Source: Patescibacteria group bacterium
GTDB lineage: Bacteria; Patescibacteriota; JABMPQ01; JAQVVF01
Direction: 5' to 3'
Length of the DNA: 64,000 nt
Assembly (NCBI GenBank): GCA_041662665.1
Contig: JBAZSC010000003.1
Location: forward strand, 76,333-140,332
The notes under the pieces are model-generated. The model did not search any database. It worked only from the letters and a program-made list of their open reading frames with translations, and had not been told where the DNA came from. Position 1 is the stretch's first letter. The number at the start of each line of letters is the position of its first letter. Shown here piece by piece: positions 1,528 to 60,109 of this stretch. The position numbers and the translations under genes are program-made.

Positions 1528-3330
1528 ATGAAAAAATTAATCCGAAGAAACAGTTTAATGTTTTTAAGCGCTGTTTTTGTATTGGTACTTTCTTGCTTTG
1601 TTTTTTTGCAGAAAAATGTTCAGGCAGCAACTTGGCAGATTGAGACTGTGGATAATAGTTCGGATAATGTAGGTTCAGATAGTTCTTTGGCTTTGGATTC
1701 TTTTGGTAATCCAAGAATTAGTTATTTTGAAAATGAAAATAAAGCTCTTAAATATGCTTTTTGGAATGGATCTGCTTGGAATATACAAACGGTTGATGAT
1801 ACAGGTAGCGTTGGTCAATATACTTCTTTAGCATTAGATTCTTCTAACAATCCAAGGATTGCTTATCAAGATCTTTCGAATTATAGTCTCAAATACGCTT
1901 CTTGGAATGGCTCTGCTTGGGATATGCAGGCAGTTGATGAGACACATATTATTGCTCGCAGTATTTCTTTAGCATTGGATTCTTCTAACAATCCGAGAAT
2001 TAGTTATTATGATTGGTTTAATGATGATCTTAAATATGCTTCATGGGATGGTTTCGTGTGGGATATTCAGATAATTGATGTTGGTCAGCATCCTTCTCTA
2101 GCTCTAGATTCTTTTAATAACCCACATATTAGTTATTATGATGCTACTCTTGATGATCTCAAATATGCATCATGGAATGGATCTGCTTGGGTTATAGAGA
2201 CGATTGATTCAACAGGTGATGTTGGCGGAGATAATTCTTTAGCTTTGGATTCTTCTAATCACCCACATATTAGTTATTATGATGCTACTCTTGATGATCT
2301 CAAATATGAATCATGGAATGGATCTGCTTGGGTTATAGAGACGATTGATTCAACAGGTGATGTTGGCGGAGATAATTCTTTAGCTTTGGATTCTTCTAAT
2401 AACCCACATATTAGTTATTATGATGCTACTCTTGATGATCTTAAATATGCATCATGGAATGGATCTGCTTGGGTTATAGAAACAGTTGATTCAACAGGTG
2501 ATGTTGGCGGAGATAATTCTTTAGCTTTGGATTCTTCTAATAACCCACATATTAGTTATTATGATGCTACAAATGGTAATCTTAAATATGCTTTTGCTGA
2601 TGTTACTGCACCAATTACAACTGCAAGTCCAGCAGGTGGCATATATTCTTCAACACAATCAGTGGTATTAACAGCTGTTGATGATTCTGCATTTACAACA
2701 TATTATACAACTGACGGATCAGAGCCAACAACTTCTTCAACACAATATACTGTTCTAATTAGTATTTCTTCAGATACAACATTAAAATTCTTTTCCGTTG
2801 ATATTTATGGTAATGTTGAGAATGTAGAAACTGAAATTTATGAATTTGATCGTATTATTTTAACTTCAGAATTAAATAATCAAGCTGTCACTAGTTGTGG
2901 TTTAAAATTCAAGTTTAAGAAATTGCCTACAAAGTTAACTAAAGATAAAAAATACTGGATTAAATGTAAAAAGACTAAGAAGTATCCTAGAAAATGGCAG
3001 AATGCAAAAAAGACTGCCTTGAAGAAATATTGGAAGATAACTACTAATCTCAGAAAATACAAAGTTAAAAAATCTTCACAGAAATTTAAGATTAAAGTAG
3101 CTTTTAAGTATACTAAAGCAGAATTTAAGAAGTTGAGGAAAAGAAATAGATTGGCAAAAGAAAATAATTTGTTTTTGAAATTCAAGATTAAAAAAGGAAC
3201 TTGGAAATCATTATCTGATGTTTGGACTAATGCAAAGATCAAGCGTAATGTGAAAACGAATAGGTTCACTGTCACATATTTTACAAAGTTTCCTAAAAAG
3301 ATTTATTATTTTGGGATTGGATTGAAATAA
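1528..3330 (+). CDS. Secreted modular repeat protein: signal peptide, ~10 beta-propeller-type repeats (…SLALDSxNNPxISYYD…LKYASWNGSAW), chitobiase/beta-hexosaminidase C-terminal-like domain, lysine-rich C-terminal domain
   Basis: N-terminal hydrophobic signal; ~47-aa repeats; 'YYTTDGSEPTTSS…TLKFFSVDIYGN' CHB_HEX_C-like motif; about 160-aa tail with >30% Lys/Arg. Confidence 0.7.
   Translation: MKKLIRRNSLMFLSAVFVLVLSCFVFLQKNVQAATWQIETVDNSSDNVGSDSSLALDSFGNPRISYFENENKALKYAFWNGSAWNIQTVDDTGSVGQYTSLALDSSNNPRIAYQDLSNYSLKYASWNGSAWDMQAVDETHIIARSISLALDSSNNPRISYYDWFNDDLKYASWDGFVWDIQIIDVGQHPSLALDSFNNPHISYYDATLDDLKYASWNGSAWVIETIDSTGDVGGDNSLALDSSNHPHISYYDATLDDLKYESWNGSAWVIETIDSTGDVGGDNSLALDSSNNPHISYYDATLDDLKYASWNGSAWVIETVDSTGDVGGDNSLALDSSNNPHISYYDATNGNLKYAFADVTAPITTASPAGGIYSSTQSVVLTAVDDSAFTTYYTTDGSEPTTSSTQYTVLISISSDTTLKFFSVDIYGNVENVETEIYEFDRIILTSELNNQAVTSCGLKFKFKKLPTKLTKDKKYWIKCKKTKKYPRKWQNAKKTALKKYWKITTNLRKYKVKKSSQKFKIKVAFKYTKAEFKKLRKRNRLAKENNLFLKFKIKKGTWKSLSDVWTNAKIKRNVKTNRFTVTYFTKFPKKIYYFGIGLK
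2121..2575 (+). repeat. Intragenic 141-bp tandem repeat, about 3.2 near-identical copies (encodes 47-aa propeller repeats)
   Basis: Repeat starts at 2121, 2262, 2403 and 2544, giving a period of 141 bp; copies are almost identical at DNA level, unlike the upstream divergent repeats. Confidence 0.85.
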
Positions 3331-5000: not shown

Positions 5001-5900
5001 ATGAAACCTATCGAGCAAGATAAATTATTATTTCCAGAAATTCTAGCTCCCAGACCAAAAGAAGCTCACAAAAAATCTGTTGGCAGTGTGATGATTGTTG
5101 CTGGATCTGATGGGATGTCTGGAGCAGCAACTTTATGTTCTGAAGCAACAATGCGTGCTGGAGCTGGAATTGTGCTTTTGGCATTTCCAAAAAGTTTGTC
5201 TGAAATTTATACAAAATTAATTCCAGAAGTTTTGACATTGCCTTGCGATGAGACAAAAGAAAAAACTTTGGCATTGTCATCTTTAGATAAAATTTTGGAA
5301 GAAGCAAAAAAATACGATGTGATTTTGATTGGTCCAGGATTATCTCAAAATAATGAAACAAGAAAATTGATTTGTGAATTGTTTAAAAATCTAAAAAATT
5401 TGCATAAAAATGTGGTTTTAGATGCTGATGGATTAAACGCTATTGCTGGTCAAATAGAATTATTAGAAAAATTAGGTGATAACAAAACTATTTTATTGCC
5501 TCATGCTGGTGAGATGGCGAGATTAACAAATAAAGATGTTGATAATATTCAAAGAGATCGAGAATGGCTAGTTAGAAAAAAGGCAAAAGAATGGAAATGT
5601 GTTTTAGTGATAAAAGGTTATGAAACAGTTATTTCTGATGGTGAAAGAGTAATAATTAATAAATCTGGCGGACCGGAATTAGCAACTGCTGGAACTGGCG
5701 ATGCTTTGGCGGGCATGGTCGCTGCTCACTTTGCAGGAAATGTTAATCTGCCTTTTGAAGCAACTGCAACTGCTGTATATTTGCATGGTTTGGCTGGAGA
5801 TATGGTTAGCAAAAAGTTAGGTGAACGTTCTGTTTTGGCGACTGATGTGATAAATATGTTGCCTGAGGTAATAAAGAAAGTGTTAAATAAGTTAGACTAG
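5001..5900 (+). CDS. nnrD: ADP-dependent NAD(P)H-hydrate dehydratase (YjeF C-terminal / Nnr2 family)
   Basis: GSVMIVAGSDGMSGAA…GPGL…DADGLN…GGPELATAGTGDALAGMVAA motifs. The start is placed at an internal ATG (MKPIEQ) because the upstream part of the ORF overlaps an AACAATGG repeat array. Confidence 0.75.
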   Translation: MKPIEQDKLLFPEILAPRPKEAHKKSVGSVMIVAGSDGMSGAATLCSEATMRAGAGIVLLAFPKSLSEIYTKLIPEVLTLPCDETKEKTLALSSLDKILEEAKKYDVILIGPGLSQNNETRKLICELFKNLKNLHKNVVLDADGLNAIAGQIELLEKLGDNKTILLPHAGEMARLTNKDVDNIQRDREWLVRKKAKEWKCVLVIKGYETVISDGERVIINKSGGPELATAGTGDALAGMVAAHFAGNVNLPFEATATAVYLHGLAGDMVSKKLGERSVLATDVINMLPEVIKKVLNKLD

Positions 5901-5947
5901 TTAGATTGGTTAGACTTGTTATTAGTTAAATTGCTAAATTGTTAAAC
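5891..5947 (+). repeat. 9-bp-period GTTAGAYNN tandem array followed by an 8-bp ATTGYTAA array in the 3' intergenic region
   Basis: gttagacta gttagattg gttagactt gtta… attgctaa attgttaa. Confidence 0.7.
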
Positions 5948-5989
5948 TATTTTTTTGTTTCAATGTTTTAGTGTTTAAGTGTTTCTGTA

Positions 5990-7423: not shown

Positions 7424-7572
7424 AATGCGATAATATAAATGCGAGTTAAATAGATTAGACTGATTTGATAAAAAATAAAATTAATAAAATGTTTGATTGC
7501 TAGATTGTTGAATTGTTAAATTGTTAATAATTTAACAATGAAATAATTTAATAATTTATTGTAAATAATAAA

Positions 7573-10884: not shown

Positions 10885-10953
10885 AAAAAGCAGATAATAA
10901 TAGACTTAAATATAAAGTTGTACTTTGACAACCCGAAAAGGGAGGGAAGAGAA

Positions 10954-11622
10954 ATGCAAGAAGAAGCCGCGAAGTTTTATCAGCATTTGGAATATTTGAA
11001 CGTTTTTAAGCCTTATCTTGACGCGAAAGCATACAATGATGTTGTTAGTCAAGCATTAAGAAAAACTTTGGCTGATCCATTTTTTCATGGTAGAAGAATC
11101 AGAGTTTTGGATTGTGGAACTGGTACAGGAAGAGGATTGATTAGATTGATTAAAGATGGCTTTTTGAGGAATGCATATATTGAAGCTTTTGATGTAGACA
11201 GAGATTTGTTGATGGGTATGCCTCGCTTGTTTGAAGAGCATGCTGTTTTGAATGGTTGGTCATACAAGCCTTTAGATTGTAAGGACCCAGCTAATTTTCA
11301 GTTCAGTATTACTTGTGAAAAAGAAGGTATTGATATTGTAGTGCATGGTTTTGTTTGTTCTGTTTATGATATTGGGTCAGAAATACTGCTTGAGGAAGTG
11401 GATTTGGTAATTGGTCAGGCTTTTATTGAACATGTTAATTCTCAGCTTGCTTATGGCAGACTATTAGGATTGCTGAAAAGCGGTGGGTTTGTCTATTTTT
11501 CTATGAACTGTGATGGATGGTTTTGTTATACTCCTTGTCCTCGTGGTTCTGAAGATAGAGATACTAAAATTATGAATTTGTTTAATGATTTGGCAATGAA
11601 TGATCAGAACTATGGTAATTAA
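10954..11622 (+). CDS. Class I SAM-dependent methyltransferase
   Basis: Glycine-rich SAM motif VLDCGTGTGRG; strong SD AAAGGGAGGGAAG. Confidence 0.55.
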   Translation: MQEEAAKFYQHLEYLNVFKPYLDAKAYNDVVSQALRKTLADPFFHGRRIRVLDCGTGTGRGLIRLIKDGFLRNAYIEAFDVDRDLLMGMPRLFEEHAVLNGWSYKPLDCKDPANFQFSITCEKEGIDIVVHGFVCSVYDIGSEILLEEVDLVIGQAFIEHVNSQLAYGRLLGLLKSGGFVYFSMNCDGWFCYTPCPRGSEDRDTKIMNLFNDLAMNDQNYGN

Positions 11623-23962: not shown

Positions 23963-24199
23963 TTTGTCCTCCGTCTTTGTTTGTTAGGGTGCAATTTAGC
24001 TTAAATTAGCATAAAAATAAGTTATGCACAACAAAATTATTGATGTTTGGTTTTTGTTGTCCGTCACGCTAATGTTTTTGCGAATGACACTAATAAAAAC
24101 ACTAATAATTTGTTTATCCACAGCTTAAAGTATTGTTGTTTGGTTTTTGTTCGGTTATAATATAAATAACAAAATAACTAAATTATAAATAACAAAATT

Positions 24200-31175: not shown

Positions 31176-31279
31176 TAAGTATCCTGAAAATCTAAGTTTG
31201 AGGTATTGAATACGAGTTAGACTAGTTAGATATGTTAGACTAGTTTTATATTTTTAGGTTTTTATATTTTTATGAAACG

Positions 31280-38516: not shown

Positions 38517-38545
38517 AAATTGTGGTTTTGAAGGTGAGTTAAATA

Positions 38546-38605
38546 GGTTAGATAAGTTAGACTGGTTAGATTTGTTAACGCTAACTAGTTTAACTTATCT
38601 AACTA
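38546..38605 (+). repeat. GTTAGAYNN 9-bp array forming an inverted repeat (ggttagataagttagactgg … ctagtttaacttatctaac)
   Basis: Tandem heptamer cores plus a 19-nt palindromic arm. Confidence 0.6.
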
Positions 38606-38620
38606 ATTTAATTAATTTCT

Positions 38621-40264
38621 ATGTTTGATATTATTATTAAAAATGGCACAATTGTCGATGGTACTGGCAAAGAAAAATATCAGGCTGATATTGGAATTAA
38701 TCGAGATACAATTTCAGAAATTGGAAATTTAGAAAATGCCAAAGCTTTAAAACAAATTGATGCTAAAGGTTTTTTTGTTTGTCCTGGATTTGTTGATGTC
38801 TTAAATCATTCTGACAGCTATTTTAAAATTTTTTCAAATCCGACTTTAGATAGTTTGGCTTTGCAAGGAATTACAACTATAATTGGAGGAAATTGTGGAG
38901 CATCTTTGGCACCTTTGGCTTCTAGTTTTACAATGTCTGATTTAAATAAGAGAATGGGTTTTAAAGCAAATGTAATCACAAATCCATCAAAAAGTGAGAC
39001 ATTATTAAAGTCAATGAGAAAATGGATTGATGTTTCAGGTATTAATATTAATTGGTCTACTTTGGATGAGTTTCTAGATGTTTTAGGCACTCAAGGAATT
39101 TCTTTAAATTTTGGGACTTTGATTGGTCATAGTTCAATGAGGCGAAATTTAGTTGGTGAGAGAATTTCTGATTTAACTTCTGACGAGATGACTTTTTTTA
39201 AAGAAATGATTGCTGATTCAATGCAACAAGGCGCTTTGGGAATGTCTTGCGGACTTTCTTTTAGCCATGAAAATTTTGTTGAAACAAGCGAGCTTTTAGA
39301 TTTAGCTTCTGTTTTGCATGATAGTGATTCGATAATGGCTTTTCATCTGAGAAATGAATCAGGAAAAATTATTGAATCAGTGGCTGAAGTGATTGAAATT
39401 GCAAAAAGAAGCGGAGTGCGAATTGAAATTTCTCATTTCAAAATTAATGGCAAGGAAAACTGGAATAAAATTAATGAAGCCTTTTCTTTAATTGAAAAAG
39501 CTAATGAAAAAGGATTGGAAATTAATTTTGATTTTTATCCTTATGATTTTGGATGGACAGTTTTTTATCAATTTTTGCCAAGCTCATTATATATCGGTGG
39601 CAGAGAAAAAATGTTAAAAAGATTAATGGATGAAAAAGAAAAGCCAGAAATTTTGAAATCTCTCCAAAAAATTTCAGCAAGAGTTTCAGAAATGATAATT
39701 GCTTATAGCCCATTTAATAAATCTTTTGTTGGCAGGAGTTTTACTGATATTGCCCAATCTCAAGGTATTAGTTTGGAAGAAGCAATTATGATGGCGCTGA
39801 TTGGCTCTCGCGGACATTTGATTTGTTTTGATAAAAATTTAGATGAAAAGAATATTGTAAGACAAATTAAACATCCATTAGGAATTTTATCATCTGATGG
39901 AAGCGGTTTTTATGAAGAAGAAAGTAGAAATGGACAATTAGTTCACCCTAGATGTTTCGGTGCTTTTACGCGTTTTCTAGGAAAATATATTAGAGAAGGA
40001 AAATTCTTGGAATGGGAAAAAGCAATTCAAAAAATTACTTCAATGCCAGCTTTAAAATATGGAATCAATAATCGTGGTTTTTTGCAAGCTGGATTAAAAG
40101 CTGATATTACAATTTTTGATCCAAATAAAATTGCTGGTTTAGCAACAATTGATAATCCATTTCAATATTCTCGTGGTGTAAAATATGTTTTGGTAAACGG
40201 AAAGTTTGTTGTTAATGATTCTAAGCATACAAAAGAACTTGCTGGAGAAATAATTAGAAAATAA
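38621..40264 (+). CDS. Amidohydrolase-3 family, N-acyl-D-amino-acid deacylase (D-aminoacylase)-like
   Basis: 'MFDIIIKNGTIVDGTGKEKYQADIGI…IDAKGFFVCPGFVDVLNHSD' N-terminal signature. Confidence 0.7.
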   Translation: MFDIIIKNGTIVDGTGKEKYQADIGINRDTISEIGNLENAKALKQIDAKGFFVCPGFVDVLNHSDSYFKIFSNPTLDSLALQGITTIIGGNCGASLAPLASSFTMSDLNKRMGFKANVITNPSKSETLLKSMRKWIDVSGININWSTLDEFLDVLGTQGISLNFGTLIGHSSMRRNLVGERISDLTSDEMTFFKEMIADSMQQGALGMSCGLSFSHENFVETSELLDLASVLHDSDSIMAFHLRNESGKIIESVAEVIEIAKRSGVRIEISHFKINGKENWNKINEAFSLIEKANEKGLEINFDFYPYDFGWTVFYQFLPSSLYIGGREKMLKRLMDEKEKPEILKSLQKISARVSEMIIAYSPFNKSFVGRSFTDIAQSQGISLEEAIMMALIGSRGHLICFDKNLDEKNIVRQIKHPLGILSSDGSGFYEEESRNGQLVHPRCFGAFTRFLGKYIREGKFLEWEKAIQKITSMPALKYGINNRGFLQAGLKADITIFDPNKIAGLATIDNPFQYSRGVKYVLVNGKFVVNDSKHTKELAGEIIRK

Positions 40265-40267
40265 ATT

Positions 40268-40345
40268 AGTTAGATTTGTTAGACTGGTTAGATAAGTTAG
40301 GCTAGTTAAACGATTGTAAAATTGATAAAATTGATAAAATTCTTA
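40268..40345 (+). repeat. GTTAGAYNN (five copies) then AATTGATAA arrays
   Basis: gttagattt gttagactg gttagataa gttaggcta gttaaac … attgtaaa attgataa aattgataa. Confidence 0.65.
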
Positions 40346-48143: not shown

Positions 48144-49751
48144 ATGAAAATACTTTTAGCAGGCGGAGGAACAGGTGGGCATATTATGCCTATTTTGGCT
48201 GTAGTAAAGCAAATTGTAAGATTAAATCTCGAAGCCCAATTTTTGTGGATTGGAACAAAAAAAGGTCCGGAAGCCAAAATTGCACGTGAGAATAAAATTG
48301 AATTTAAAGCTGTCTTAGCTGGAAAAATGAGACGGTATGTTTCGTTTTGGAATTTTGTTGATATGGTTAAATTGCCTCTTGGTGTTGTACAAGCTTATTT
48401 TAAAGTAAAAAAATTCAAGCCTGATGTTTGTTTCAGCAAAGGCGGATATGTCAGTGTGCCAACTGTTATAGTTTGCAATCATTTTAAAATTCCAGTTTTG
48501 TTGCATGAATCAGATGTGATTGCTGGCAAGGCAAATTTGTTTATGGCAAAATATGCAAGTAAAATTGCATTAGGATTTGAAGAAGGAAAAAATAGTTTTA
48601 AAGATTTTTCTGACAAAATAATCATTACAGGCAATCCTGTTCGCGAGGAAATTTTATTAGCAAAAAAAGAAGATGGCATTAAAGATTTAAATTTAAATAA
48701 TAAAAAACCTGTATTATTAATAATTGGTGGAAGCCAAGGAGCGCAAAAAATTAATGATTTGATTGGCTTAGTTCTCCATAAATTATTAGAAAAATGGCAG
48801 ATTATTCATGTTGTTGGGCCATCACATGGCAATCAGATTTTAGGTAATGTAAAAGCATTAGAAAATGATTATCATATATTCCAATTTTTGGATGGCAAGA
48901 AAATGGGCGAGGCATTGTCAGTTTCTGATTTAATTATTTCTCGAGCTGGAGCAAATAGCTTGGCTGAAATTTCAGCATTAGGCAAGCCAGCAATTTTGAT
49001 TCCTTATCCTTTTGCATCATCTGATCATCAAAAAGCTAATGCAGAAATTTATGCAAAAAATAATGCAGCTGTAATTATAAACGAAAAAGATTTGACTTCA
49101 GAAAAATTATTGACTGATATAACAAGTTTGCAAGCTGATAAAGAAAAATTAGAAACAATGCATTTGGCAATGCTTAAGATGTTCAATAAAGATGCAAATA
49201 ATAAATTAGCAACTGAAATTTTAGGTCTAGCAAAATCAAAAAATGTTTTTGCAAAGAAAAATAAAAAAATATTAGTATTTGTTGAAGGTACGATTTTGAT
49301 GCACAAAAAAGGTTTAGGCGAAAGTCAAGAAAAAATTGTTTTGCAAGTTAAAAATAATGAGCCATCTGTGAAAGACTTTGCTAATTATATTATGATTGGT
49401 CACGCAAATGAAAAGCTAAAAAAATGGCAAGAACAAGGTGCAAAAATTTTATATTTAACTTCAAGAATTTCAATGGATGAAGTGTCGCAGATTGGCGAGG
49501 TTTTGGCAAAAAATAATTTTCCAGAAGGTGATTTATATTATCGAAAAGAAAATCAAAAATATAATAATATTATAGAATATGTAAAGCCTGATATTTTGAT
49601 TGAAGATGATTGTGAGAGTAACGGAGGTCAGAAAGAGATGGCGATTACATTAGTTAAGCCAGAAATAAAGAATAGTATTAAGTCAATTGTTGTTAAAGAA
49701 TTTCAGGGAATTGATAGTTTGTCGGACGATGTTAAATTGTTGAATGGTTAA
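48144..49751 (+). CDS. murG: MurG glycosyltransferase fused to a ~170-aa C-terminal extension domain
   Basis: GT28 motifs (GGGTGGH, 'IGGSQGA'); typical MurG is about 360 aa but this ORF is 535 aa; TTGACT-N17-TATATT promoter ends 6 nt before the ATG. Confidence 0.8.
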   Translation: MKILLAGGGTGGHIMPILAVVKQIVRLNLEAQFLWIGTKKGPEAKIARENKIEFKAVLAGKMRRYVSFWNFVDMVKLPLGVVQAYFKVKKFKPDVCFSKGGYVSVPTVIVCNHFKIPVLLHESDVIAGKANLFMAKYASKIALGFEEGKNSFKDFSDKIIITGNPVREEILLAKKEDGIKDLNLNNKKPVLLIIGGSQGAQKINDLIGLVLHKLLEKWQIIHVVGPSHGNQILGNVKALENDYHIFQFLDGKKMGEALSVSDLIISRAGANSLAEISALGKPAILIPYPFASSDHQKANAEIYAKNNAAVIINEKDLTSEKLLTDITSLQADKEKLETMHLAMLKMFNKDANNKLATEILGLAKSKNVFAKKNKKILVFVEGTILMHKKGLGESQEKIVLQVKNNEPSVKDFANYIMIGHANEKLKKWQEQGAKILYLTSRISMDEVSQIGEVLAKNNFPEGDLYYRKENQKYNNIIEYVKPDILIEDDCESNGGQKEMAITLVKPEIKNSIKSIVVKEFQGIDSLSDDVKLLNG

Positions 49752-49823
49752 ATTGTTGCTAAACTGTTAGTTTTTAAAATTTGGGAAATAAAAAAATCCA
49801 CATTAGTAGTGGATGAAAATGAA

Positions 49824-50118: not shown

Positions 50119-51384
50119 ATGTCAATAAATTTACAAAAATTTAAAAAAGTATATTTTATTGGTATTGGTGGAATTGGTGTTTCTGCTGTTGCTAGAATTT
50201 TTTTGCAAAAAAATATTGAAGTTGTTGGATCTGATCTGGTTGAAAGTGTTGTGACAAAAGATTTAATTAAAAAAGGAGCAAAGATTTTTGTTGGCAAACA
50301 TGATGCAAAGAATTTGCCTGATGATGTTGATTTAGTTGTGCATACTGTTGCTGCAACATCCGATAATCCAGAATTAGTTAAGGCAAAGAAGTCGGGAATT
50401 AAGACGATGAGCTATCCTGAAGTTTTGGGTGAATTAACAAAAAATAAATATTTGATTGCAGTTTCTGGAACACATGGAAAGACAACAACAACAGCGATGA
50501 TTGGATTAATGTTAGTTGACGCTGGTCTTGATCCAACTGTGATTGTTGGATCTAACATTAAAGAATTTGATGGCAATGCAAGATTAGGAAAAAGCGATTA
50601 TTATGTTATTGAGGCAGATGAATATCGCCGAGCATTTTTAAATTATAAGCCAAAAATTGCAGTGGTATTAAATATTGAATTTGATCATCCGGATTGTTAT
50701 AAAGATTTAGATGATGTAAAAGATGCATTTAATCTTTTTATTGCTAGGGCAGATTATATTGTTGATCATCCAGAAAATTTGATGAATGATTTGAATTTAA
50801 AATTAAAAGTTCCAGGAAAAGGTTTTTTACTTGATGCTCTTGCTGCTCGAGAAGTTGGCAGAATTCTGGAAATTGATGATAAAATTATTAAAGAGAGCTT
50901 GGAAAATTATCAAGGATCTTGGCGGAGATTTGAAATAAAAGGAGAGATTAATGGAGTAATTGTCGTTGATGATTATGCTCATCATCCAACAGAAGTAAAA
51001 TCAACTTTGCAGGCAGCGAAAGAAAAATATCCTGATAAAAATATTGTTTGTGTTTTTCAACCGCATCATCAAGATAGATTTAATGCTTTGTTTGATGAAT
51101 TTGTCGGTGCTTTTAATGATTGTGATAGAGTGATTTTGACTGATGTGTATCATGTGGCTGGAAGAGAAGAAAACAGAAAACAGAAAACAGGAAACAGGAA
51201 AACTTCTGAGGATTTAGCAAAGAAAATTGGTCAAAAGGTAATCTATGTTGGTGGACTTGATGAAGCCTTTGAATGGCTGAAAAAAAATGTTAAACCTGGT
51301 GATGTGGTACTTACTATGGGAGCAGGGACAATAACAGAGGTAAGTGATAAATTGATTAAAAATTTAAAATTAAAAAATAAATAA
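50119..51384 (+). CDS. murC: UDP-N-acetylmuramate--L-alanine ligase
   Basis: 'YFIGIGGIGVSAVA', 'GTHGKTTTT'; contains the low-complexity insert at 51164-51204. Confidence 0.85.
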   Translation: MSINLQKFKKVYFIGIGGIGVSAVARIFLQKNIEVVGSDLVESVVTKDLIKKGAKIFVGKHDAKNLPDDVDLVVHTVAATSDNPELVKAKKSGIKTMSYPEVLGELTKNKYLIAVSGTHGKTTTTAMIGLMLVDAGLDPTVIVGSNIKEFDGNARLGKSDYYVIEADEYRRAFLNYKPKIAVVLNIEFDHPDCYKDLDDVKDAFNLFIARADYIVDHPENLMNDLNLKLKVPGKGFLLDALAAREVGRILEIDDKIIKESLENYQGSWRRFEIKGEINGVIVVDDYAHHPTEVKSTLQAAKEKYPDKNIVCVFQPHHQDRFNALFDEFVGAFNDCDRVILTDVYHVAGREENRKQKTGNRKTSEDLAKKIGQKVIYVGGLDEAFEWLKKNVKPGDVVLTMGAGTITEVSDKLIKNLKLKNK

Positions 51385-51391
51385 AAATAAA

Positions 51392-53218
51392 ATGAAAAAA
51401 CTATTTAGTTTGGGAGCGGTTTGTGGTGTGCTGGTATTTTTACTATTGGGACTAAATGTAAATGCAGCGACAATTCAGAATTATTTGAATGATTGGCAAT
51501 TTGATTTTGAGGCTTATGGTGATACGCGGACAGGTGATACTGCGCATCAAGAAGTGGTCAATCAAATGGTGCCATTAAATTCCGATTTCGTGCTGCACGT
51601 TGGAGATTTGGTCAATAGCGCTTCTTCATTACCTGAGTGGCAGACTTTTTTCAGTATCACAGCTAATTTAATGAATAAACCAATCAAAAATGGTTTGACT
51701 AGAAATTTCTATCCTGCAGTTGGTAATCATGAAGTGCCGGTGGCTGATTATCAAGCACAATTTAATAATATTCCGACTTATTATTCGTTTGATTATTTTG
51801 GTTGGCATTTTATATCGATTGATAATTATGAAGATTTTGCTACCGGCAGTACGCAGTATAATTGGCTAGTCAATGATTTGAGTGCTAATCAAAATAAAGA
51901 AATAATAGTTTGGTTTCATGAGCCGGCTTATAGCTCTGGTCATCATGGACCGAATGCTACTGTGCATGACTATTTGATTCCTTTATTTGAACAATATGGA
52001 GTAGCTGTTGTTTTCAATGGTCATGATCATATTTATGAACGAACTTATCCGATTTATCAAAATGCAGTTAATTATAATAATGGAATTGTTTATGTTGTGA
52101 CTGGTGGTGGGGGAGCACCATTGGGTAATTTTACAACTGGAAATTGGTGGACAGCGGCTGGAGGAAGTGAGTACGAATTTGTTTATTTACAAGCAACAAG
52201 TTCAAAGCTTTATGCTAATGTAGTAAATAATAATGGCACGCAGATAGATAATTTTACAGTTGATTTGAGAAAAAATAGCAAATATTTAATGACTTCTCTG
52301 GAACAGGATGGTCGAAAAAATATTAAGAAATTTAATACTTCAGGAAGTTTATTGAGTGATGGTTTTAAAGCTTATTCTAAAAAGGCTAAAAACGATGGAG
52401 TGAGAATCGCCAGCGGGGATGTAAATATGGATGGCAATGATGAATTAATTGTTGGTTCGGGTTCTAATTCTAAATCTTGGGTTAAAGTTTTTGATATAAA
52501 TGGAAATTTGTTGAAAAAAATTTATCCTTTTAAGAAAGATTATTTAGGAGGTGTTGATGTGGCAGCTGGTGATGTTAATGGTGATAATATTTCGGAAATT
52601 GCAGTGTCAAAATTTACAGGAGAAAGTTCAAAGGTTAAAATTTTTAAATATCTTGATAAATCAGTAATTTTTGATAGAATTATTTATCCAAAACTCGAGT
52701 CCGCAGTAGCCATAACTTTAGGTGATGTCGATAATGATTGGACTGATGAATTGATTACTGGGACAGGAACAGGTGTAAGATCAAAAATTAGATTTTATAA
52801 TATTCTGACGACTAATAAAAAGGGTTCGAAGATTGATAAAGAAATTAAACCGTTCAAGAAAGATATTGTGGATGGTTTAGATGTTGCTTGTGGCGATATA
52901 AATAATGATGGTAATTTGGATATCGGTGTATCAAAATTAGCTGGTGATAAAGGTAAGGTCAAGGTTTTTGAATATAGCACCAAAGATTTAATTGAGGAGA
53001 TTAATGTTTTTCGTAAGGAGCATGTAAGTGGAGCCAATCTAGAGATGTTCGATGTTAATTCTGATGGCAAAGCCGAAGTAATTGCTAGCCAAAGATTAGC
53101 AGAAGATAGTCGGCCAACAGTTAAGATTTATGATAATAATAAAAGTTTATTAGAAAAGTTTTCTGCTTATAGTAAAAAAACTAGTGGAGGAGTAGTGGTA
53201 GTAGGTGTAAATTATTAA
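51392..53218 (+). CDS. Secreted calcineurin-like metallophosphoesterase fused to C-terminal FG-GAP/VCBS repeats
   Basis: Signal peptide; 'LHVGDLVN', 'GNHE', 'GHDHIYER'; four 'GDVNxDxxxEI' FG-GAP-type repeats. Confidence 0.65.
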   Translation: MKKLFSLGAVCGVLVFLLLGLNVNAATIQNYLNDWQFDFEAYGDTRTGDTAHQEVVNQMVPLNSDFVLHVGDLVNSASSLPEWQTFFSITANLMNKPIKNGLTRNFYPAVGNHEVPVADYQAQFNNIPTYYSFDYFGWHFISIDNYEDFATGSTQYNWLVNDLSANQNKEIIVWFHEPAYSSGHHGPNATVHDYLIPLFEQYGVAVVFNGHDHIYERTYPIYQNAVNYNNGIVYVVTGGGGAPLGNFTTGNWWTAAGGSEYEFVYLQATSSKLYANVVNNNGTQIDNFTVDLRKNSKYLMTSLEQDGRKNIKKFNTSGSLLSDGFKAYSKKAKNDGVRIASGDVNMDGNDELIVGSGSNSKSWVKVFDINGNLLKKIYPFKKDYLGGVDVAAGDVNGDNISEIAVSKFTGESSKVKIFKYLDKSVIFDRIIYPKLESAVAITLGDVDNDWTDELITGTGTGVRSKIRFYNILTTNKKGSKIDKEIKPFKKDIVDGLDVACGDINNDGNLDIGVSKLAGDKGKVKVFEYSTKDLIEEINVFRKEHVSGANLEMFDVNSDGKAEVIASQRLAEDSRPTVKIYDNNKSLLEKFSAYSKKTSGGVVVVGVNY

Positions 53219-53236
53219 ATTTTCAGAAAATAGGTT

Positions 53237-54184
53237 ATGAATAATTTTTTTGAAAAATGTGAGCGCGATATTAATTTGGCTGATCATACGACTTTCAAAA
53301 TTGGCGGGCCTGCTGATTATTTTTATATTGCAAAAAATCAAGAGGATTTGATTGAAGCTTTGAAATCAGTAAAAGAAGAAGGGATAAAATATTATGTTTT
53401 AGGAGGAGGAAGCAATGTTTTGGTTTCTGATGAAGGTTTTAGAGGATTAGTAATAAAAATAGAGCTAGATAATTTGGATATTAAAGAAAATATTATAATT
53501 GTCGGTGCTGGTGTTTCAGTTGGCAAAATTGTAAGCAAGGCTTTGGATAACAATTTGACTGGAATGGAATTTTTTACTGGCGTGCCTGGAACAATTGGTG
53601 GTGCGATTTTTGGCAATGCTGGAGCCTATGGAAGTGATGCTAGTAAAATTTTGAAAAGTGTCTCTTATTATGATGTAAATGCAGATAAGATAATTAAAAA
53701 AGAAATTAATAATCTTGATTTTTCTTATCGTTCAAGTGAATTTAAAAATGATAAAAATAAAATTGTTTTATCATGCGAAATTGAATTAAAAAAATCAGAT
53801 AGAAATAAAATTATTGCTGAAATGTCAGATATTGCAAAACAAAGAGGAACAAAGATTCCAAATGAGCCTAGCGCCGGTTCAGTTTTTAAAAATGTAACAA
53901 AAGATTTAACACAGATACTCAACAAATTAGACACAGATAACACAGATAAAATTAAATTTAAAAAGTATGGAAAAATTCCGGCTGCTTTATTGATTGAAAA
54001 AAGTGGATTAAAAGGAAGACAAGTTGGCGGAGCAAAAGTATCAGAAAAGCATACTAATTTTATTGTAAATATAGGTTTCGCAAAGGCAAAAGATGTGCTA
54101 GACTTAGTTGAAATAGTGAAAACTCAAGTTAAAATTAAATTTGGCGTTGAGTTAGAATTAGAGAATATATTGGTCGGGTTCTAA
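53237..54184 (+). CDS. murB: UDP-N-acetylenolpyruvoylglucosamine reductase
   Basis: 'TFKIGGPADYF', FAD-binding PCMH domain, 'GGGSN'. Confidence 0.85.
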   Translation: MNNFFEKCERDINLADHTTFKIGGPADYFYIAKNQEDLIEALKSVKEEGIKYYVLGGGSNVLVSDEGFRGLVIKIELDNLDIKENIIIVGAGVSVGKIVSKALDNNLTGMEFFTGVPGTIGGAIFGNAGAYGSDASKILKSVSYYDVNADKIIKKEINNLDFSYRSSEFKNDKNKIVLSCEIELKKSDRNKIIAEMSDIAKQRGTKIPNEPSAGSVFKNVTKDLTQILNKLDTDNTDKIKFKKYGKIPAALLIEKSGLKGRQVGGAKVSEKHTNFIVNIGFAKAKDVLDLVEIVKTQVKIKFGVELELENILVGF

Positions 54185-54200
54185 ATGTTGCATTAAATAA

Positions 54201-54265
54201 GTTAGATTAGTTAGATAGGTTAGACTGGTTATTTATAAATTGTTCAATTGTTAAATTGTTAATAT
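54201..54265 (+). repeat. GTTAGATNN array followed by ATTGTTAA array
   Basis: gttagatta gttagatag gttagactg gtta … attgttca attgttaa attgttaa. Confidence 0.65.
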
Positions 54266-54308
54266 TAATTTTGACAATTTAGCATTTTAACAATTAAACA
54301 ATTAAGTT

Positions 54309-54632
54309 ATGAAAATCACAATTTACCACAAAAAAATTGAATTAACGGACAAGCTTTATGATTATGTTCAGGAAAAAGTTGGCGGTTTAGAGCAATATAT
54401 TGACAATGTGATTGAATGCTTTGTAGAGTTAGACGAAGATACATCAATGAAATCAGGCAAAAAATTCAGATGCGAAGTGCAAATGAAAGTTCCAAGATCT
54501 TCCATTAGAGCTGAAGAAATTGCCTATGATATTTTTGAAGCAATTGATCTTGTAATTCCAAAATTAACTAAACAAATTGAAAAATACAAAGGTACTAGAA
54601 GTCATCCGAGGGGAATAAAAAGTTTGAATTAG
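54309..54632 (+). CDS. hpf: Ribosome hibernation promoting factor / RaiA family
   Basis: 'MKITIYHKKIELTDKLYDYVQEKV…' S30AE-family signature. Confidence 0.75.
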   Translation: MKITIYHKKIELTDKLYDYVQEKVGGLEQYIDNVIECFVELDEDTSMKSGKKFRCEVQMKVPRSSIRAEEIAYDIFEAIDLVIPKLTKQIEKYKGTRSHPRGIKSLN

Positions 54633-54654
54633 TTTTTATAAAAATATTTTAATT

Positions 54655-54775
54655 TTGAGAATTTAGAATTTAGAATCTGGAATCTAGAATAGAATAGAGA
54701 ATTTGGAATAAAATAATTCTCATTTTACTTTCTAATTCTATTCAAAATTCTAGATTCAAGATTCTAGATTCTTAA
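54655..54775 (+). repeat. About 120-bp imperfect palindrome of 7-bp AATYTAG units (tagaatctggaatctagaatagaatag … ctattcaaaattctagattcaagattctagattc)
   Basis: Inverted arrays directly upstream of the secA ATG. Confidence 0.6.
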
Positions 54776-54779
54776 TTTT

Positions 54780-57536
54780 ATGGCATTTGATTTTTTTAAA
54801 AAAATATTTGGTGATCCAAATAAACGAGTTGTTGATCAGCTCGCTCCAATAGTTTCGCAAATTAATTCTTTGGAATCAGGTTTGAAAGATTTGTCAGCTG
54901 AAGAATTAAAATCTAGAACAAAAAAATTAAAAGATGAATTAAAAAATGGCAAGACTTTAGACGATATTTTGCCTGAGGCTTTTGCTTTAGTTCGAGAGGC
55001 TTCCAGAAGAACGACAAAAATGAGACATTTTGATGTTCAGCTTTTGGGTGGAATTGTTCTTCATCAAGGAAAAATATCAGAAATGAAAACTGGTGAAGGA
55101 AAAACTTTGGTGGCAACATTGCCATTATATTTGAATGCATTGTCAGGCAAAGGCTCTCATTTAATTACTGTTAATGATTATTTGGCAAGAAGAGATACAG
55201 TATGGATGGGGCAGATTTATGATGCTCTTGGATTAAGTGTTGGTTGTATTCAGCATGAACAGGCTTTTGTTTACGATTCTCAATATAGCAAAAAGAATAA
55301 TGAATCAGGAATAATGAATAATGAAGAACTTGATGAAGAAAGAGATGAAATGGGAAGTTTTAAAGTATTCCATGAATATCTAAGACCAGTTTCTAGAAAA
55401 GAAGCATATAATGCTGATATTACTTACGGAACAAATAATGAATATGGTTTTGATTATTTGAAAGATAATATGGTTGCAGAGCTTGCTGAAAAAGTTCAAA
55501 GAAATTTGAATTTTGCAATTGTTGATGAAGTTGACTCTATTTTGATTGATGAAGCAAGAACTCCGTTGATTATTTCTGCTCCAGCAGAAGAAGCAGTTGA
55601 TATGTATAATCAATTTGCAAGCTTGATTCCAAAATTAAAAGAAAATGAAGATTACAATATTGATGAAAAAATGCGGGCAGCAACTTTGACAGATAAAGGA
55701 ATCGCAAAGCTTGAAAAAATGTTGGGATTGCAGAATATTTATGAAGAAAAAGGAATAGAAATTGTCCATCATATTGAACAAGCTTTGAAAGCGCATACTT
55801 TGTTTAAAAGAGACAAAGATTATGTTGTAAAAAATAATGAAGTAATAATTGTTGATGAATTTACTGGCAGATTAATGCCTGGCCGTAGATTTTCTGAAGG
55901 TTTGCATCAAGCGTTGGAAGCAAAAGAAAACGTGGCGATTCAGCGAGAATCAAGAACATTAGCAACAATTACATTTCAAAATTATTTTAGAATTTATAAA
56001 AAATTAGCTGGCATGACTGGAACTGCGGCAACATCAGCTGAAGAATTTTCAAAAGTTTATAAATTGGATGTTGTTATAATTCCAACCAATAAACCATTAA
56101 TACGTGAGGATTTAAATGATTTGGTTTATAAATCAGAATTAGGAAAATATATTGCTGTAGTTAAAGATGTAAAAGAAAGAAATAAAAAAGGTCAGCCAGT
56201 TTTGATTGGTACGATTTCAATTGAAAAAAATGAGAGATTAGGACAAATGTTGCAAGACGAAGGAATTATATGCAATGTTTTAAATGCAAAGAACCATGAA
56301 AAAGAAGGCGAGATAATTGCTCAAGCTGGTAGATTAAATGGCGTGACAGTTGCAACAAACATGGCAGGTCGCGGTGTTGATATTATTTTGGGTGGAGTGC
56401 CTTTGAATAAAGAAGAAGCAGAAAAAATTAAACAATTAGGTGGTCTTCATGTTATTGGAACAGAAAGGCATGAAGCAAGAAGAATAGATAATCAGCTTCG
56501 AGGTAGAGCTGGACGTCAAGGCGATCCTGGTTCTTCACAATTTTTTGTGTCAATGGAAGATGATTTGATGAGAATTTTTGGTTCTGACAGAATGAAAAAA
56601 ATGATGGATACTTTGAAATTGCCAGAAGATCAGCCAATTGAACATGGATTAATCTCAAAATCAATTGAAGCAGCTCAAAATAAAGTTGAAGGAAATAATT
56701 ATGATATTAGAAAACATGTTTTGGAATATGATGATGTGATGAATAAACATCGGGAAGTCATTTATAAAAAGCGTAATGCGATACTTGATGCTTGGGAACG
56801 AGAAAAAAGGGAAATAGGAAACAGAAAACAGGAAACAGGAAAAGAAATGCAAACTTTGAAAAGTATTATTTTAGAATATATTGAAGATGAAATTGAGCAA
56901 ATTGTAACAAATCATACTGGTACAGAAGATGTTGAGAATTGGAATTGTGAAGAAATTTATGAATCTGTAAAAACTATTTTTCCAGTATCGCAAGATATTC
57001 ATCTTGAATTGGAAAATTTAGCAAAAAAAGCTGGCAATGAAAAAAATGGAGCTGAAGCAAGAACGATAATTATTGATTATCTTTTTGATTTGGCAAGGAA
57101 AGCTTATGATGCGAAAGAAAAAGAAAATGGTGAGGAAGGAATGAGGCAAATCGAAAGAGCTGTTTTGCTTCGAACTATTGATTCTTTGTGGATGGATCAT
57201 TTGGATGCAATGGAATATATGAGAGAGGGAATTGGCTTGCGAGGTTTTGGACAAAGAGATCCATTAGTTGAATATAAAAAAGAAGCATTTGGAATGTTTG
57301 GTGCTTTGTTGGCAGAAATTCAAAATAGAGTTGTTTATACTATTTATAAAGTTGGAATTGTGACACAACAAGTATCGCCAATGCAAAAAGCAAAACAACA
57401 AATGCAAACTTCAGGCGCGGAAAAAGGTGAAGATTCTAAAACTTTGCCAGAGCACTCTAGCAAAATTGGAAGAAATGATCCGTGTATTTGTGGAAGTGGG
57501 AAAAAATACAAGCACTGTTGCGGAAAAAACAAATAG
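54780..57536 (+). CDS. secA: Preprotein translocase ATPase SecA (with C-terminal zinc-binding tail)
   Basis: DEAD-like motor motifs, 'MAGRGVDI', C-terminal [14 protein letters not shown]; contains the low-complexity insert at 56815-56844. Confidence 0.95.
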
Positions 57537-57565
57537 AAATTCGGAAATTATGAAATTCGGAAATT

Positions 57566-57660
57566 TCTACCCAACTTCAGTTGGGGTTAGGTGAACTTTA
57601 GTTCACGGACGACGAAAAACTAAAGTTTTTTTGACCCCAACTGAAGTTGGGTAGGGTACT
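57566..57660 (+). repeat. MITE-like inverted-pair version of the two-hairpin element (ctacccaacttcagttggggt … accccaactgaagttgggtag); likely also the secA terminator
   Basis: 21-nt perfect terminal inverted repeats flanking gtgaac/ttta/gttcac and an A/T run. Confidence 0.65.
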
Positions 57661-57697
57661 CTAAAAATCAAAATAAAAAAACGAACGTGGAAGTTCG

Positions 57698-58155: not shown

Positions 58156-59874
58156 ATGTCAATACATGATCGGATATTGCGGATATTAGATATTCGGATA
58201 TTAGGTGGTTTGATTTTGGTTGTTTTTTTGTTTTCTTGTTTCTTTGTTTTGAATGCAAATGCGTCCAACTACATTCAGCCAGAAATAAAAGTTTATTCTG
58301 ATTATGGAGATAAAATAGATGCTGATTTTTTGGCATTTGACAAGAATTTTAAAGGCGGAGCATATCCAGCAATTGGCGATATTAATAATGATGGAAAAGA
58401 TGAAATTGTGATTGGCGCTGGATATGGTGGCGGGCCGCAAGTTAGAATTTTTGATAAATTGGGAAATTCAACTGGCATTAATTTCTATGCATTTGAAAAA
58501 GAATATACTTCAGGTGTTGATGTTGCTGTTTGTAATTTAGATAATAAAGGTAGAAATGAAATTGTTGTTGGCAAAGCACTTGAAGATAGAAGCGATATTG
58601 CAATCTATAAAATTAGTAAAAAAAATAAAATTAATAAGCTGACTTCTTTTACGGCTTATGATGAAAGTTTTGAAGGTGGAGTGAATATTTCATGTTCGGA
58701 TTTAAACAATGATAAAAGAGATGAAATTGTTACTTCACCTGGACCTTCTGGTCGTAGTCATATCAGAACTTTTAAATATTTGGCAAAGAAAAAAGAAGTT
58801 GTTGATTTTGGATTATCTTTTTTTGCATTCAATGACGATTTTGAAGGCGGAGCAACTGTCAGTGCTTATAATGGCAAAATAATTGTTGGACAAGCGACAG
58901 GAGGAAATTTGGTTTATGTCTATGAAGTGAATCGCAAAGATGTAAGAAAGTTTTCAAAATTAGGAATGCTTGATAAGTTAGCGCCGAAATTTGTTAGAAA
59001 AATTAATGCATTTAAAAATTTTAAAGGAGGAGTTAATGTTTCAATTGGAAAATTGGATTCTGGCAAGGCAAAAATTTTGGTATCGCCAGCTTCTAATGGC
59101 GGTCCAACAATTCAAATTTTTAATTTAAAAGGAAAGCTATTAAAAAATTTTAGCGCCTATTCAGGTGATTTTAAAGGCGGCGTAAGAATTGCGAATCTCA
59201 CGAATGGCAAGCCCACAAATAACTCAAATGATAAACAGAAGGATTATGATTTTGTTGTTGCTCCAGGATTTAAATTGGGAATTAAATGTGAAAGAAATTG
59301 CGTGGCTTTAACTCTTGATGACGGCTATACTTCAGCAAGTGGATCGTTCGATCGAATTTTGGATACATTAAAATATAAAAAAGTTCATGCGACATTTTTT
59401 ATGCTAGGTACTGTAATGCAACAATATCCAGACAGGATGAAAAGATTAAGTGATGAAGGGCATCAACTAGCAAATCATAGTTTTTCACACGCTGATTTTA
59501 CAAGATTATCAAGCGCACAAATTATTAATGAAATTACTTATACTAATCAAATAGGTGAAAGTATAACTGGCAAGCCGACAAAACCTTATTTTCGTTATCC
59601 TGGTGGCAGTCATAATGCTTCAACTGATGCAATTGTAAAAAATTTAGGTTATAAGTATTTTGGATGGACAGCATCTGCAGGAGATACAGGATCAAATGTT
59701 ACAGTACAATCAGCAACCTTTGGCATGCTTTGGAATTTGCATGATGGTTCAATAATTCTGGGACACACAATGAAAGATGCAACTGCAGGAGCTTTGCCAA
59801 CTGTTATTGATGCAATCAGAAATGCTGGATTTACATTAGCGACTCTTGATGAAATGAGTTCATATTGGAAATGA
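58156..59874 (+). CDS. Secreted FG-GAP-repeat protein with C-terminal NodB-type polysaccharide deacetylase (CE4) domain
   Basis: N-terminal TM/signal; 'GDINNDGKDEIV' FG-GAP repeats; CE4 motifs 'LTLDDGY', 'HATFFMLG', 'GHQLANHSFSH'. Confidence 0.7.
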   Translation: MSIHDRILRILDIRILGGLILVVFLFSCFFVLNANASNYIQPEIKVYSDYGDKIDADFLAFDKNFKGGAYPAIGDINNDGKDEIVIGAGYGGGPQVRIFDKLGNSTGINFYAFEKEYTSGVDVAVCNLDNKGRNEIVVGKALEDRSDIAIYKISKKNKINKLTSFTAYDESFEGGVNISCSDLNNDKRDEIVTSPGPSGRSHIRTFKYLAKKKEVVDFGLSFFAFNDDFEGGATVSAYNGKIIVGQATGGNLVYVYEVNRKDVRKFSKLGMLDKLAPKFVRKINAFKNFKGGVNVSIGKLDSGKAKILVSPASNGGPTIQIFNLKGKLLKNFSAYSGDFKGGVRIANLTNGKPTNNSNDKQKDYDFVVAPGFKLGIKCERNCVALTLDDGYTSASGSFDRILDTLKYKKVHATFFMLGTVMQQYPDRMKRLSDEGHQLANHSFSHADFTRLSSAQIINEITYTNQIGESITGKPTKPYFRYPGGSHNASTDAIVKNLGYKYFGWTASAGDTGSNVTVQSATFGMLWNLHDGSIILGHTMKDATAGALPTVIDAIRNAGFTLATLDEMSSYWK

Positions 59875-59906
59875 GAAATGGGATATGGGAAGTGAGAAAA
59901 TAGATA

Positions 59907-59983
59907 TTCTACCCTGCCCATGGCAGGGGTACGTGAATTTTTTGTAGTAACTTTTAAAAACCCTTGCCGTGGGCAAGGTAGAA
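59907..59983 (+). repeat. Inverted-pair two-hairpin element (tctaccctgcccatggcagggg … cccttgccgtgggcaaggtaga)
   Basis: Terminal inverted repeats of about 22 nt, each itself a hairpin. Confidence 0.6.
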
Positions 59984-60109
59984 GCTAACTATTGAATACT
60001 GAATATTTTTGTGCTATTATGATATTGTAAGAAAAAAGTTAGACTAGTTAGACTAGTTAACTATTTTCTGTTTTCTATTTACTATAAATTAATTAAATTA
60101 TAAATAACT

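Follow-up and report, generated by a model that had tools for sequence, protein, structure and literature searches.

Heptanucleotide tandem arrays with a common 25-nt core in murC and secA of a Patescibacteria genome

Heptanucleotide arrays and in-frame repeats in bacteria

The neuO gene of the Escherichia coli K1 prophage CUS-3 contains a variable-number tandem repeat, (AAGACTC)n, a coding heptanucleotide array that is subject to strand slippage and is translated only when the number of units is divisible by three (PMC13001214). It is the nearest mechanistic analogue of the two arrays described here, which lie in the murC and secA genes of a Patescibacteria group bacterium (GenBank assembly GCA_041662665.1), within a stretch of 64,000 nt (contig JBAZSC010000003.1, positions 76,333 to 140,332; hereafter the window), and which contain an identical 25-nt sequence, AAACAGAAAACAGGAAACAGGAAAA. 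Both genes are essential in most bacteria. The likeness to neuO is that of a heptanucleotide array in coding sequence that is read as a repeated heptapeptide. However, neuO is a non-essential surface-modification gene with 3 - 53 pure units at its 5' end, where they form an on/off phase switch, whereas murC and secA have 4 - 5 impure units in internal loops of essential genes, with no length variation in three assemblies. The features of a phase-variable contingency locus were not found: the few units include A/G and T variants, and no frame-shifted allele is present in an independent ENA assembly (L129) or in a Logan assembly (L130). A switching role for the murC and secA arrays is not plausible.

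The TAACTGA repeats of Beggiatoaceae, cyanobacteria and Bacteroidetes mostly lie a short way before start codons, with a few falling within open reading frames (ORFs), where they are translated as the cyclic heptapeptide LSVISYQ, and long LSVISYQ arrays have been reported in spurious ORFs (MacGregor 2015, PMC4679880). Geobacter heptanucleotide elements are intergenic direct repeats of heptamers (PMC2700814). Short arrays (2 - 6 units) of a 7-nt unit that recur across the genome are the common feature of these families, and the non-coding DNA of the window has the same habit. They differ in that each family has one dominant unit per genome and is mainly non-coding, whereas in the window the unit varies by site and the murC and secA arrays are inside coding sequence. 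At codons ~351 and ~680, these two arrays also do not occupy a leader position of the TAACTGA type, although other arrays in the window do. TAACTGA repeats as such are absent from the window; ATCAGTT, to which a rotation of TAACTGA is reverse-complementary, is present in the MurC loop of one relative (L236), and this loop reads SVISYQL, the peptide encoded by the reverse strand of the TAACTGA repeat.

Two further comparisons concern repeats within proteins. Protein low-complexity regions, for example, are described as arising by replication slippage (PMC3523016), and the murC and secA segments resemble them in being hydrophilic disordered loops encoded by A-rich DNA in a compositionally biased genome. 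Most low-complexity regions have 3-nt or 6-nt periods, whereas the 7-nt period of murC and secA yields a cyclic heptapeptide and makes each single-unit change a frameshift. Nothing specific on heptamer arrays in proteins of the Candidate Phyla Radiation (CPR, i.e., Patescibacteria) was found in the literature. Rickettsia palindromic elements (RPEs), reportedly recognized by Ogata and colleagues in 2000 as selfish DNA inserted in frame in protein-coding genes, are palindromic, ~100 - 150 bp long, and present in dozens of copies. They too are repeated at the DNA level and lie in frame, at surface-exposed positions, in unrelated genes, some of them essential, but the murC and secA arrays are 35 - 45 nt, unstructured and tandem-repetitive. 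Neither many dispersed copies with conserved ends nor a hairpin, as in RPEs or miniature inverted-repeat transposable elements (MITEs), was found: there are two copies in 64 kb, with a folding z-score of -0.27.

The shared sequence and its reading in two proteins

The murC gene (50119..51384, + strand) encodes a UDP-N-acetylmuramate--L-alanine ligase of 421 aa that is 100% identical to the NCBI-named MurC of a Patescibacteria metagenome-assembled genome (MAG) and has the Pfam Mur_ligase N, M and C domains; secA (54780..57536, + strand) encodes a preprotein translocase ATPase of 918 aa, identical to NCBI MFA6296720.1, with the SecA Pfam domains. An exact copy of AAACAGAAAACAGGAAACAGGAAAA occupies 51178..51202 in murC, starting at codon position 1, and another occupies 56819..56843 in secA, starting at codon position 3. 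Both are on the + strand, 5,641 nt apart in the same orientation, and they are the only two in the window. No match arose in any of 100 dinucleotide-preserving shuffles, giving a chance expectation of 0 for the pair. A chance product of an A-rich genome was thus rejected. The identity reported by a first-pass annotation of the sequence was upheld, as were the peptides it quoted (MurC E351-K361, SecA G680-E689); its spans of 51164-51204 and 56815-56844 are nearly correct, but take in flanking bases.

The 25-mers are the cores of degenerate tandem arrays and not a discrete insert. The murC array (51167..51203, + strand) is made up of AAGAAAA, CAGAAAA twice, CAGGAAA twice and a final AC, and encodes E351-T362, which is the whole variable loop. 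The secA array (56801..56845, + strand) reads AGAAAAA, AGGGAAA, TAGGAAA, CAGAAAA, CAGGAAA twice and a final AGA, becomes more degenerate toward its 5' side, and encodes approximately K676-E689. Tandem Repeats Finder (TRF) reported period 7 for both, with 5.0 copies at 51168-51203 (89% matches) in murC and 4.3 copies at 56819-56847 in secA, matches over the two arrays being 86 - 89%; for secA it also gave rows of period 14 and 21 at 56801-56847. With at least three head-to-tail copies at each site of one degenerate heptamer, RAAACAG, both are microsatellites. The common 25-mer consists of the block CAGAAAA-CAGGAAA-CAGGAAA-A and the three bases that precede it. In murC an overlapping copy with two mismatches lies one unit upstream of the exact copy, and the gapless similarity of the two genes reaches 42 nt at 86% identity (51161-51202 versus 56802-56843; repeat family D16). 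Native codons adjoin both arrays: the first murC unit, AAGAAAA, consists of conserved Glu-Glu codons and matches the unit at 6/7 positions in register, and the GAGAAAA codons of secA also match at 6/7 positions, but one base out of register.

The consequences for translation follow from the period. Since 7 and 3 are coprime, all frames of an array run through one and the same cycle of seven codons, (AAAACAG)n reading K-T-E-N-R-K-Q and (GAAACAG)n reading E-T-G-N-R-K-Q; and because the unit, 6/7 purine, contains no T, there is no stop in any sense frame. The first-pass annotation held that the shared nucleotides are read in different frames and that the identity is therefore at the DNA and not the protein level. 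The codon phase does differ (1 versus 3), but this is trivial for an array of period 7, and the second part of the claim fails: both proteins contain NRKQ(K/E)TG (NRKQKTG and NRKQETG), and after a shift of one 7-nt unit the two arrays align in the same frame at 20/21 nt. It still holds that DNA identity is what drives the likeness of murC and secA. As a rule, a 7-nt period gives one cyclic heptapeptide in all frames, and annotators can spot such segments from the protein alone.

In MurC, the array encodes the entire loop between the conserved VAGRE strand and the start of the S-E-D-L helix. This loop varies in both sequence and length across 120 homologues, the measured stretch having a mode of 30 residues, with 33 in the window and 27 in the sister group. 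The AlphaFold2 model of MurC has a mean predicted local distance difference test score (pLDDT) of 89.8, and its sole segment below 50 is residues 352-357 (NRKQKT), modelled as coil between a strand (337-341) and a helix (363-370). The SecA array is at the end of a long helix, after RRRILEG, at the site where the scaffold helix probably meets the helical wing domain, and it is a 19-residue insertion relative to Mycobacterium tuberculosis SecA1 (1nkt). Among 120 SecA homologues the loop ranges from a two-residue turn to the more than 40 residues seen here, and is shorter here than in the nearest relatives. The SecA model (mean pLDDT 69.6) has coil at residues 681-692, between helices 643-680 and 693-712, with pLDDT below 50 at 682-688. 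From the models and alignments, both arrays are predicted to occupy hypervariable, solvent-exposed flexible coil loops; we propose no function for either other than as a loop or linker. No orthologue among the 120 MurC and 120 SecA homologues has these arrays at those positions, in agreement with the proposal that the segments are lineage-specific. The word "insert", also used of them, does not describe them well: the loops have been rewritten and not simply enlarged, MurC being only 3 aa above the family mode and SecA, as noted, shorter than its nearest relatives.

Origin of the arrays and of their common block

The closest homologues found, at two syntenic loci (L124 and L121), share 81% and 79% identity with MurC and 89% and 84% with SecA, and have wholly different sequence at both array sites. 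What relatives have in such loops is nevertheless informative. The MurC loop of L236 is a six-unit heptamer array, ATCTGTT ATCAGTT ATCAGTT GCCAGTT GCCAGTG AACAGTT, of which L237 has an ACCAGTT version; because the last unit is identical with the conserved codons GAA-CAG-TTA, this array visibly grew from native codons, a direct sign of seeding in situ. In L124 the same SecA loop is a period-8 array, AAAAAACA x4.2, and secA of L121 has (AAATCCT)4.4 and (ACAAATT)3.7 in the other variable SecA loop. The window itself has a second heptamer array in secA, (GAATAAT)x4.4 by TRF (55295..55325, + strand), which is in frame, unrelated to RAAACAG, and located in that other loop, which is hypervariable across SecA homologues and has pLDDT below 50 at residues 173-178; it shows the same process at another hypervariable loop. 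Likewise murC has (ATTAAAA)x3.9 by TRF (51355..51381, + strand), encoding a lineage-specific C-terminal tail, NLKLKNK, that is missing from relatives in the MurC alignment. Apart from the murC/secA pair, coding arrays in the clade have a different unit at each site.

Several other features were observed. In many Patescibacteria, the hypervariable loops of SecA repeatedly contain the peptides NPKSQI, IPNPKSQ, KFQIPNS and NSKSQ (P0124, P0125, P0132, P0141, P0146; L121 15718-15773). These peptides are the cyclic heptapeptides expected from arrays of the (AAATCCC) or (AAATTCC) type, and in L121 the two secA arrays named above confirm this at the DNA level. The murC gene of L121 (GCA_964574655.1; 10001-11296) has, in an AT-rich genome, a GC-rich in-frame insert at ~10920-10960, CCGACCCGCCTTCGCCAAGGCTCCGGCGGGCAAGGT (PTRLRQGSGGQG), with CCCGCC/GGCGGG inverted arms, which is palindromic and resembles RPEs or repetitive extragenic palindromic (REP) elements. 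MurG, encoded at 48144-49751, has 535 aa in the window, L121 and L124 versus 359 aa in L236 and L237, the longer form having a C-terminal extension of ~175 residues fused to the glycosyltransferase.

Searches elsewhere show that the heptamer is widespread and the 25-mer rare. In 241 million metagenome records the exact 25-mer occurs on three contigs, all from unrelated organisms (GC 0.69, 0.57 and 0.41) and each time inside a longer, apparently non-coding (RAAACAG)n array. (RAAACAG)3 was found at at least 120 loci in many phyla, including cultured isolates, the source genome not being among the matches listed; among these matches the arrays are mostly intergenic, several directly before an ATG. 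In-frame examples are in a Patescibacteria UvrD/PD-(D/E)XK helicase-nuclease (ENRKQKTENRKQK) and in a Bacteroidetes DNA polymerase III delta' (KNRKQETGNRKQ). Among the matches listed, 133 arrays of at least three RAAACAG units at 120 loci of other genomes included 113 (85%) that are homogeneous, and none with this 25-mer. In viral contigs, composition-matched control heptamers form arrays at 31 and 59 loci versus 15 for AAAACAG; a specially favoured unit was rejected on this basis, since composition-matched arrays are as common or commoner.

Two groups of matches deserve separate mention. In a Chthonomonadaceae MAG, CBDFGA01 (L012, L018, L042, L053, L087, L097, L109, L117), (AAAACAG)4 arrays form inverted pairs ~95 nt apart at many loci, with conserved flanks (AAGAAAATGCCCGGTCTGCAAAC and AAGGGGGCTGTCAGAGTTTG), and look like a MITE-like repeat family with heptamer-array ends. 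In Desulfobacterota (L027, L082, L092 and others), (AAAACAG)3-4 lies directly upstream of the start of a conserved ORF (AAAACTATGCCTTCTGCTTCCA) in several genomes, and also before the ATG of other genes; these arrays may be 5' leaders, possibly of a repeated, perhaps insertion sequence-like, gene.

The murC and secA arrays are probably two slippage-type (RAAACAG)n microsatellites in the MurC and SecA loops, with one copied over the other. Comparison with the relatives supports very frequent replication slippage, or tandem duplication, of 7 - 8-nt units in this lineage, by which the loops are repeatedly rewritten, with units growing from the gene's own A-rich codons. An array would be tolerated in a flexible loop as long as the net length remained a multiple of three, the T-free, stop-free unit encoding, as follows directly from its sequence, a hydrophilic cyclic K-Q-(K/E)-T-(G/E)-N-R in every frame. 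Slippage accounts for the arrays, but not for the heterogeneous block CAGAAAA-CAGGAAA-CAGGAAA-A common to both, which probably passed from one gene to the other, most likely by short-patch ectopic gene conversion or by replication template switching between two pre-existing similar A-rich arrays. Either array could be the older, because both adjoin native codons matching the unit at 6/7 positions. The pair would in this sense be an ordinary coding microsatellite with an unusual paralogous homogenization.

Several points weigh against this reading. Array length is the same in all three assemblies, these being near-clonal (0 - 1 mismatch), so that ongoing slippage is not seen among them. Over 5.6 kb, conversion or template switching would have had only ~25 - 42 nt of similarity to work with, about the least that homologous recombination requires. 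The native RAGAAAA-like codons next to both arrays raise the prior for a partly convergent origin. No relative closer than 81% (MurC) or 89% (SecA) was found, so the copying is neither datable nor directly visible, and the count of two 25-mers covers 64 kb, on a contig at least 211 kb long, and the genome may have further copies elsewhere.

Of the rival explanations, an assembly or sequencing artefact is hardly credible. The source is a metagenome-assembled genome, and low-complexity DNA is error-prone, but the 25-mers can be taken as real because assemblies from different pipelines reproduce the arrays base for base: L129 has both copies, with 1 mismatch in 7412 nt; L130 has the murC copy, with 11547/11547 nt identical; and the window is identical to the contig of the NCBI MAG (MurC MFA6296716.1, SecA MFA6296720.1). 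Both genes are also in frame, with full-length homology on either side of the arrays, and the artefact was rejected. Independent convergence, i.e., separate slippage from the similar native seeds AAGAAAA (murC) and GAGAAAA (secA) with a coincidental identity of 25 nt, is a more serious proposal and yet an unlikely one. The seeds are conserved Glu/Lys codons with 6/7 positions the same as in the unit, tolerated units are few (a unit has to be T-free and purine-rich to keep all frames open, and the coding strand is itself rich in purines), and the exact 25-mer did arise in three unrelated organisms. A single origin of the block is nevertheless suggested by the derived C of both arrays, their common A-G-G succession of unit variants and irregular GAAAA end, by the absence of the 25-mer from all 133 listed, and largely homogeneous, arrays of other genomes, and by the different units of other coding arrays in the clade.

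Little credence is given to a selected nucleic-acid motif, which would be either an AGGA site inside the gene that acts like a Shine-Dalgarno sequence in pausing or internal initiation, or a protein-binding A-rich repeat of the leader type. RAAACAG arrays in other phyla are often directly upstream of an ATG, a role in translational regulation has been proposed for TAACTGA heptamers that precede start codons (PMC4679880), and in secA AGGAAAAGAAATG precedes the in-frame ATG of Met690 with Shine-Dalgarno-like spacing; against this, Met690 is not conserved, the murC copy has no ATG after it, neither array overlaps an Rfam family, and even relatives at 81 - 89% identity lack the arrays. Specifically, Rfam 15 gave no covariance-model match at E<=1 over 51160-51205 or 56800-56850. 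About as little probability attaches to a miniature mobile or repeat element inserting in frame in the manner of RPEs, the first of the origins that the first-pass annotation had suggested. DNA-level identity kept in frame in two unrelated essential genes would agree with such an element, as would the multi-copy, dispersed (AAAACAG)n of some other genomes, e.g., the inverted pairs of the Chthonomonadaceae MAG. However, only two copies are present in 64 kb, the three exact metagenome matches are all in unrelated taxa, and the RNA fold of 51150-51215 (-6.1 kcal/mol, z=-0.27) has no hairpin potential. Neither inverted or direct terminal repeats, nor target duplication, nor sharp ends were seen in the arrays, the similarity fading gradually into native codons, and in relatives different tandem arrays are found in the MurC and SecA loops, including one seeded by host codons. 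A possible third copy at 60061-60085 (minus strand) was rejected as too weak, being merely TAAATAG-AAAACAG-AAAATAG. The alternative suggestion of the same annotation, a replication-slippage product, fits heptamer tandem arrays in a genome that has a large excess of period-7/8 arrays.

Period-7/8 arrays across the window

This excess was evaluated by shuffling codons within genes and nucleotides within spacers (100 shuffles). Counting those with at least 3 copies, the window has 5 period-7/8 arrays in coding and 19 in non-coding DNA, whereas the shuffles predict 0.19 and 0.08, i.e., an excess of ~25-fold and more than 200-fold, respectively; the observed counts were reached in 0/100 shuffles, and the relatives L121 and L124 are similar. 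The 19 non-coding arrays are contained within 9.2 kb, and many end a few bases before the next start codon. Nearly all genes of the window are on the + strand and the GC skew is +0.1 to +0.4, which fits the purine-rich, T-poor units on the coding strand.

Array-bearing spacers include 5956-5984, 7485-7558, 24164-24198, 38582-38618, 54193-54305 and 54658-54772; the unit differs by spacer, and there are several 9-mer arrays as well. A composite intergenic motif upstream of genes (families D6 and D8) consists of 3 - 4 tandem AGTTAGAYT-like 9-mers, followed at several sites by TAAATTGT-like 8-mers (5883-5923, 31208-31266, 38539-38588, 40252-40310, 54193-54233 and 60030-60070; and 7488-7537, 49728-49761 and 54231-54264), and could be a promoter, operator or leader element that these genes have in common. 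The 5' leader of secA (54650-54782) consists of two inverted heptamer arrays, (AGAATYT)n and (AGATTCT)n, that fold to a hairpin of ~60 bp (-47.9 kcal/mol, z=-7.8) ending 3 nt before the ATG; it could be the hpf terminator or a translational control structure. Long hairpins at 57559-57662, downstream of secA, and at 59897-59995, downstream of the 58156-59874 ORF, have sub-threshold Rfam matches to microRNA precursors that reflect hairpin shape only, the latter containing two GC-rich, terminator-like stem-loops. A perfect (TTC)14.7 run is located at 1427-1470, in the spacer upstream of the 1528-3330 ORF.

In summary, a puzzling DNA identity between two essential genes is explained by microsatellite biology and not by a new mobile element, and the wider excess of 7 - 9-nt arrays is the more interesting lead. 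We suggest tentatively, and as a rather doubtful extension, that a clade-wide mutational regime of 7 - 9-nt tandem arrays may write most 5' leaders, rewrite surface loops of core proteins (MurC, SecA, MurB, a UvrD-like helicase) and let arrays pass between genes; the cyclic heptapeptides of CPR proteins (NRKQKTE, PNPKSQI, KFQIPNS, SVISYQL) would be its footprint, and the murC/secA pair a transfer caught in the act. A missing repair function or a slippage-prone replisome are possible causes. Lineage-specific insertions in core proteins of Patescibacteria have often been noted and seldom explained, and several of those considered here go back, at the DNA level, to heptamer arrays that native codons had seeded. 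Should this hold generally, it would bear on the novelty of protein loops in reduced genomes, on alignment and phylogeny artefacts in CPR marker genes, and on the role of the abundant arrays that abut start codons.

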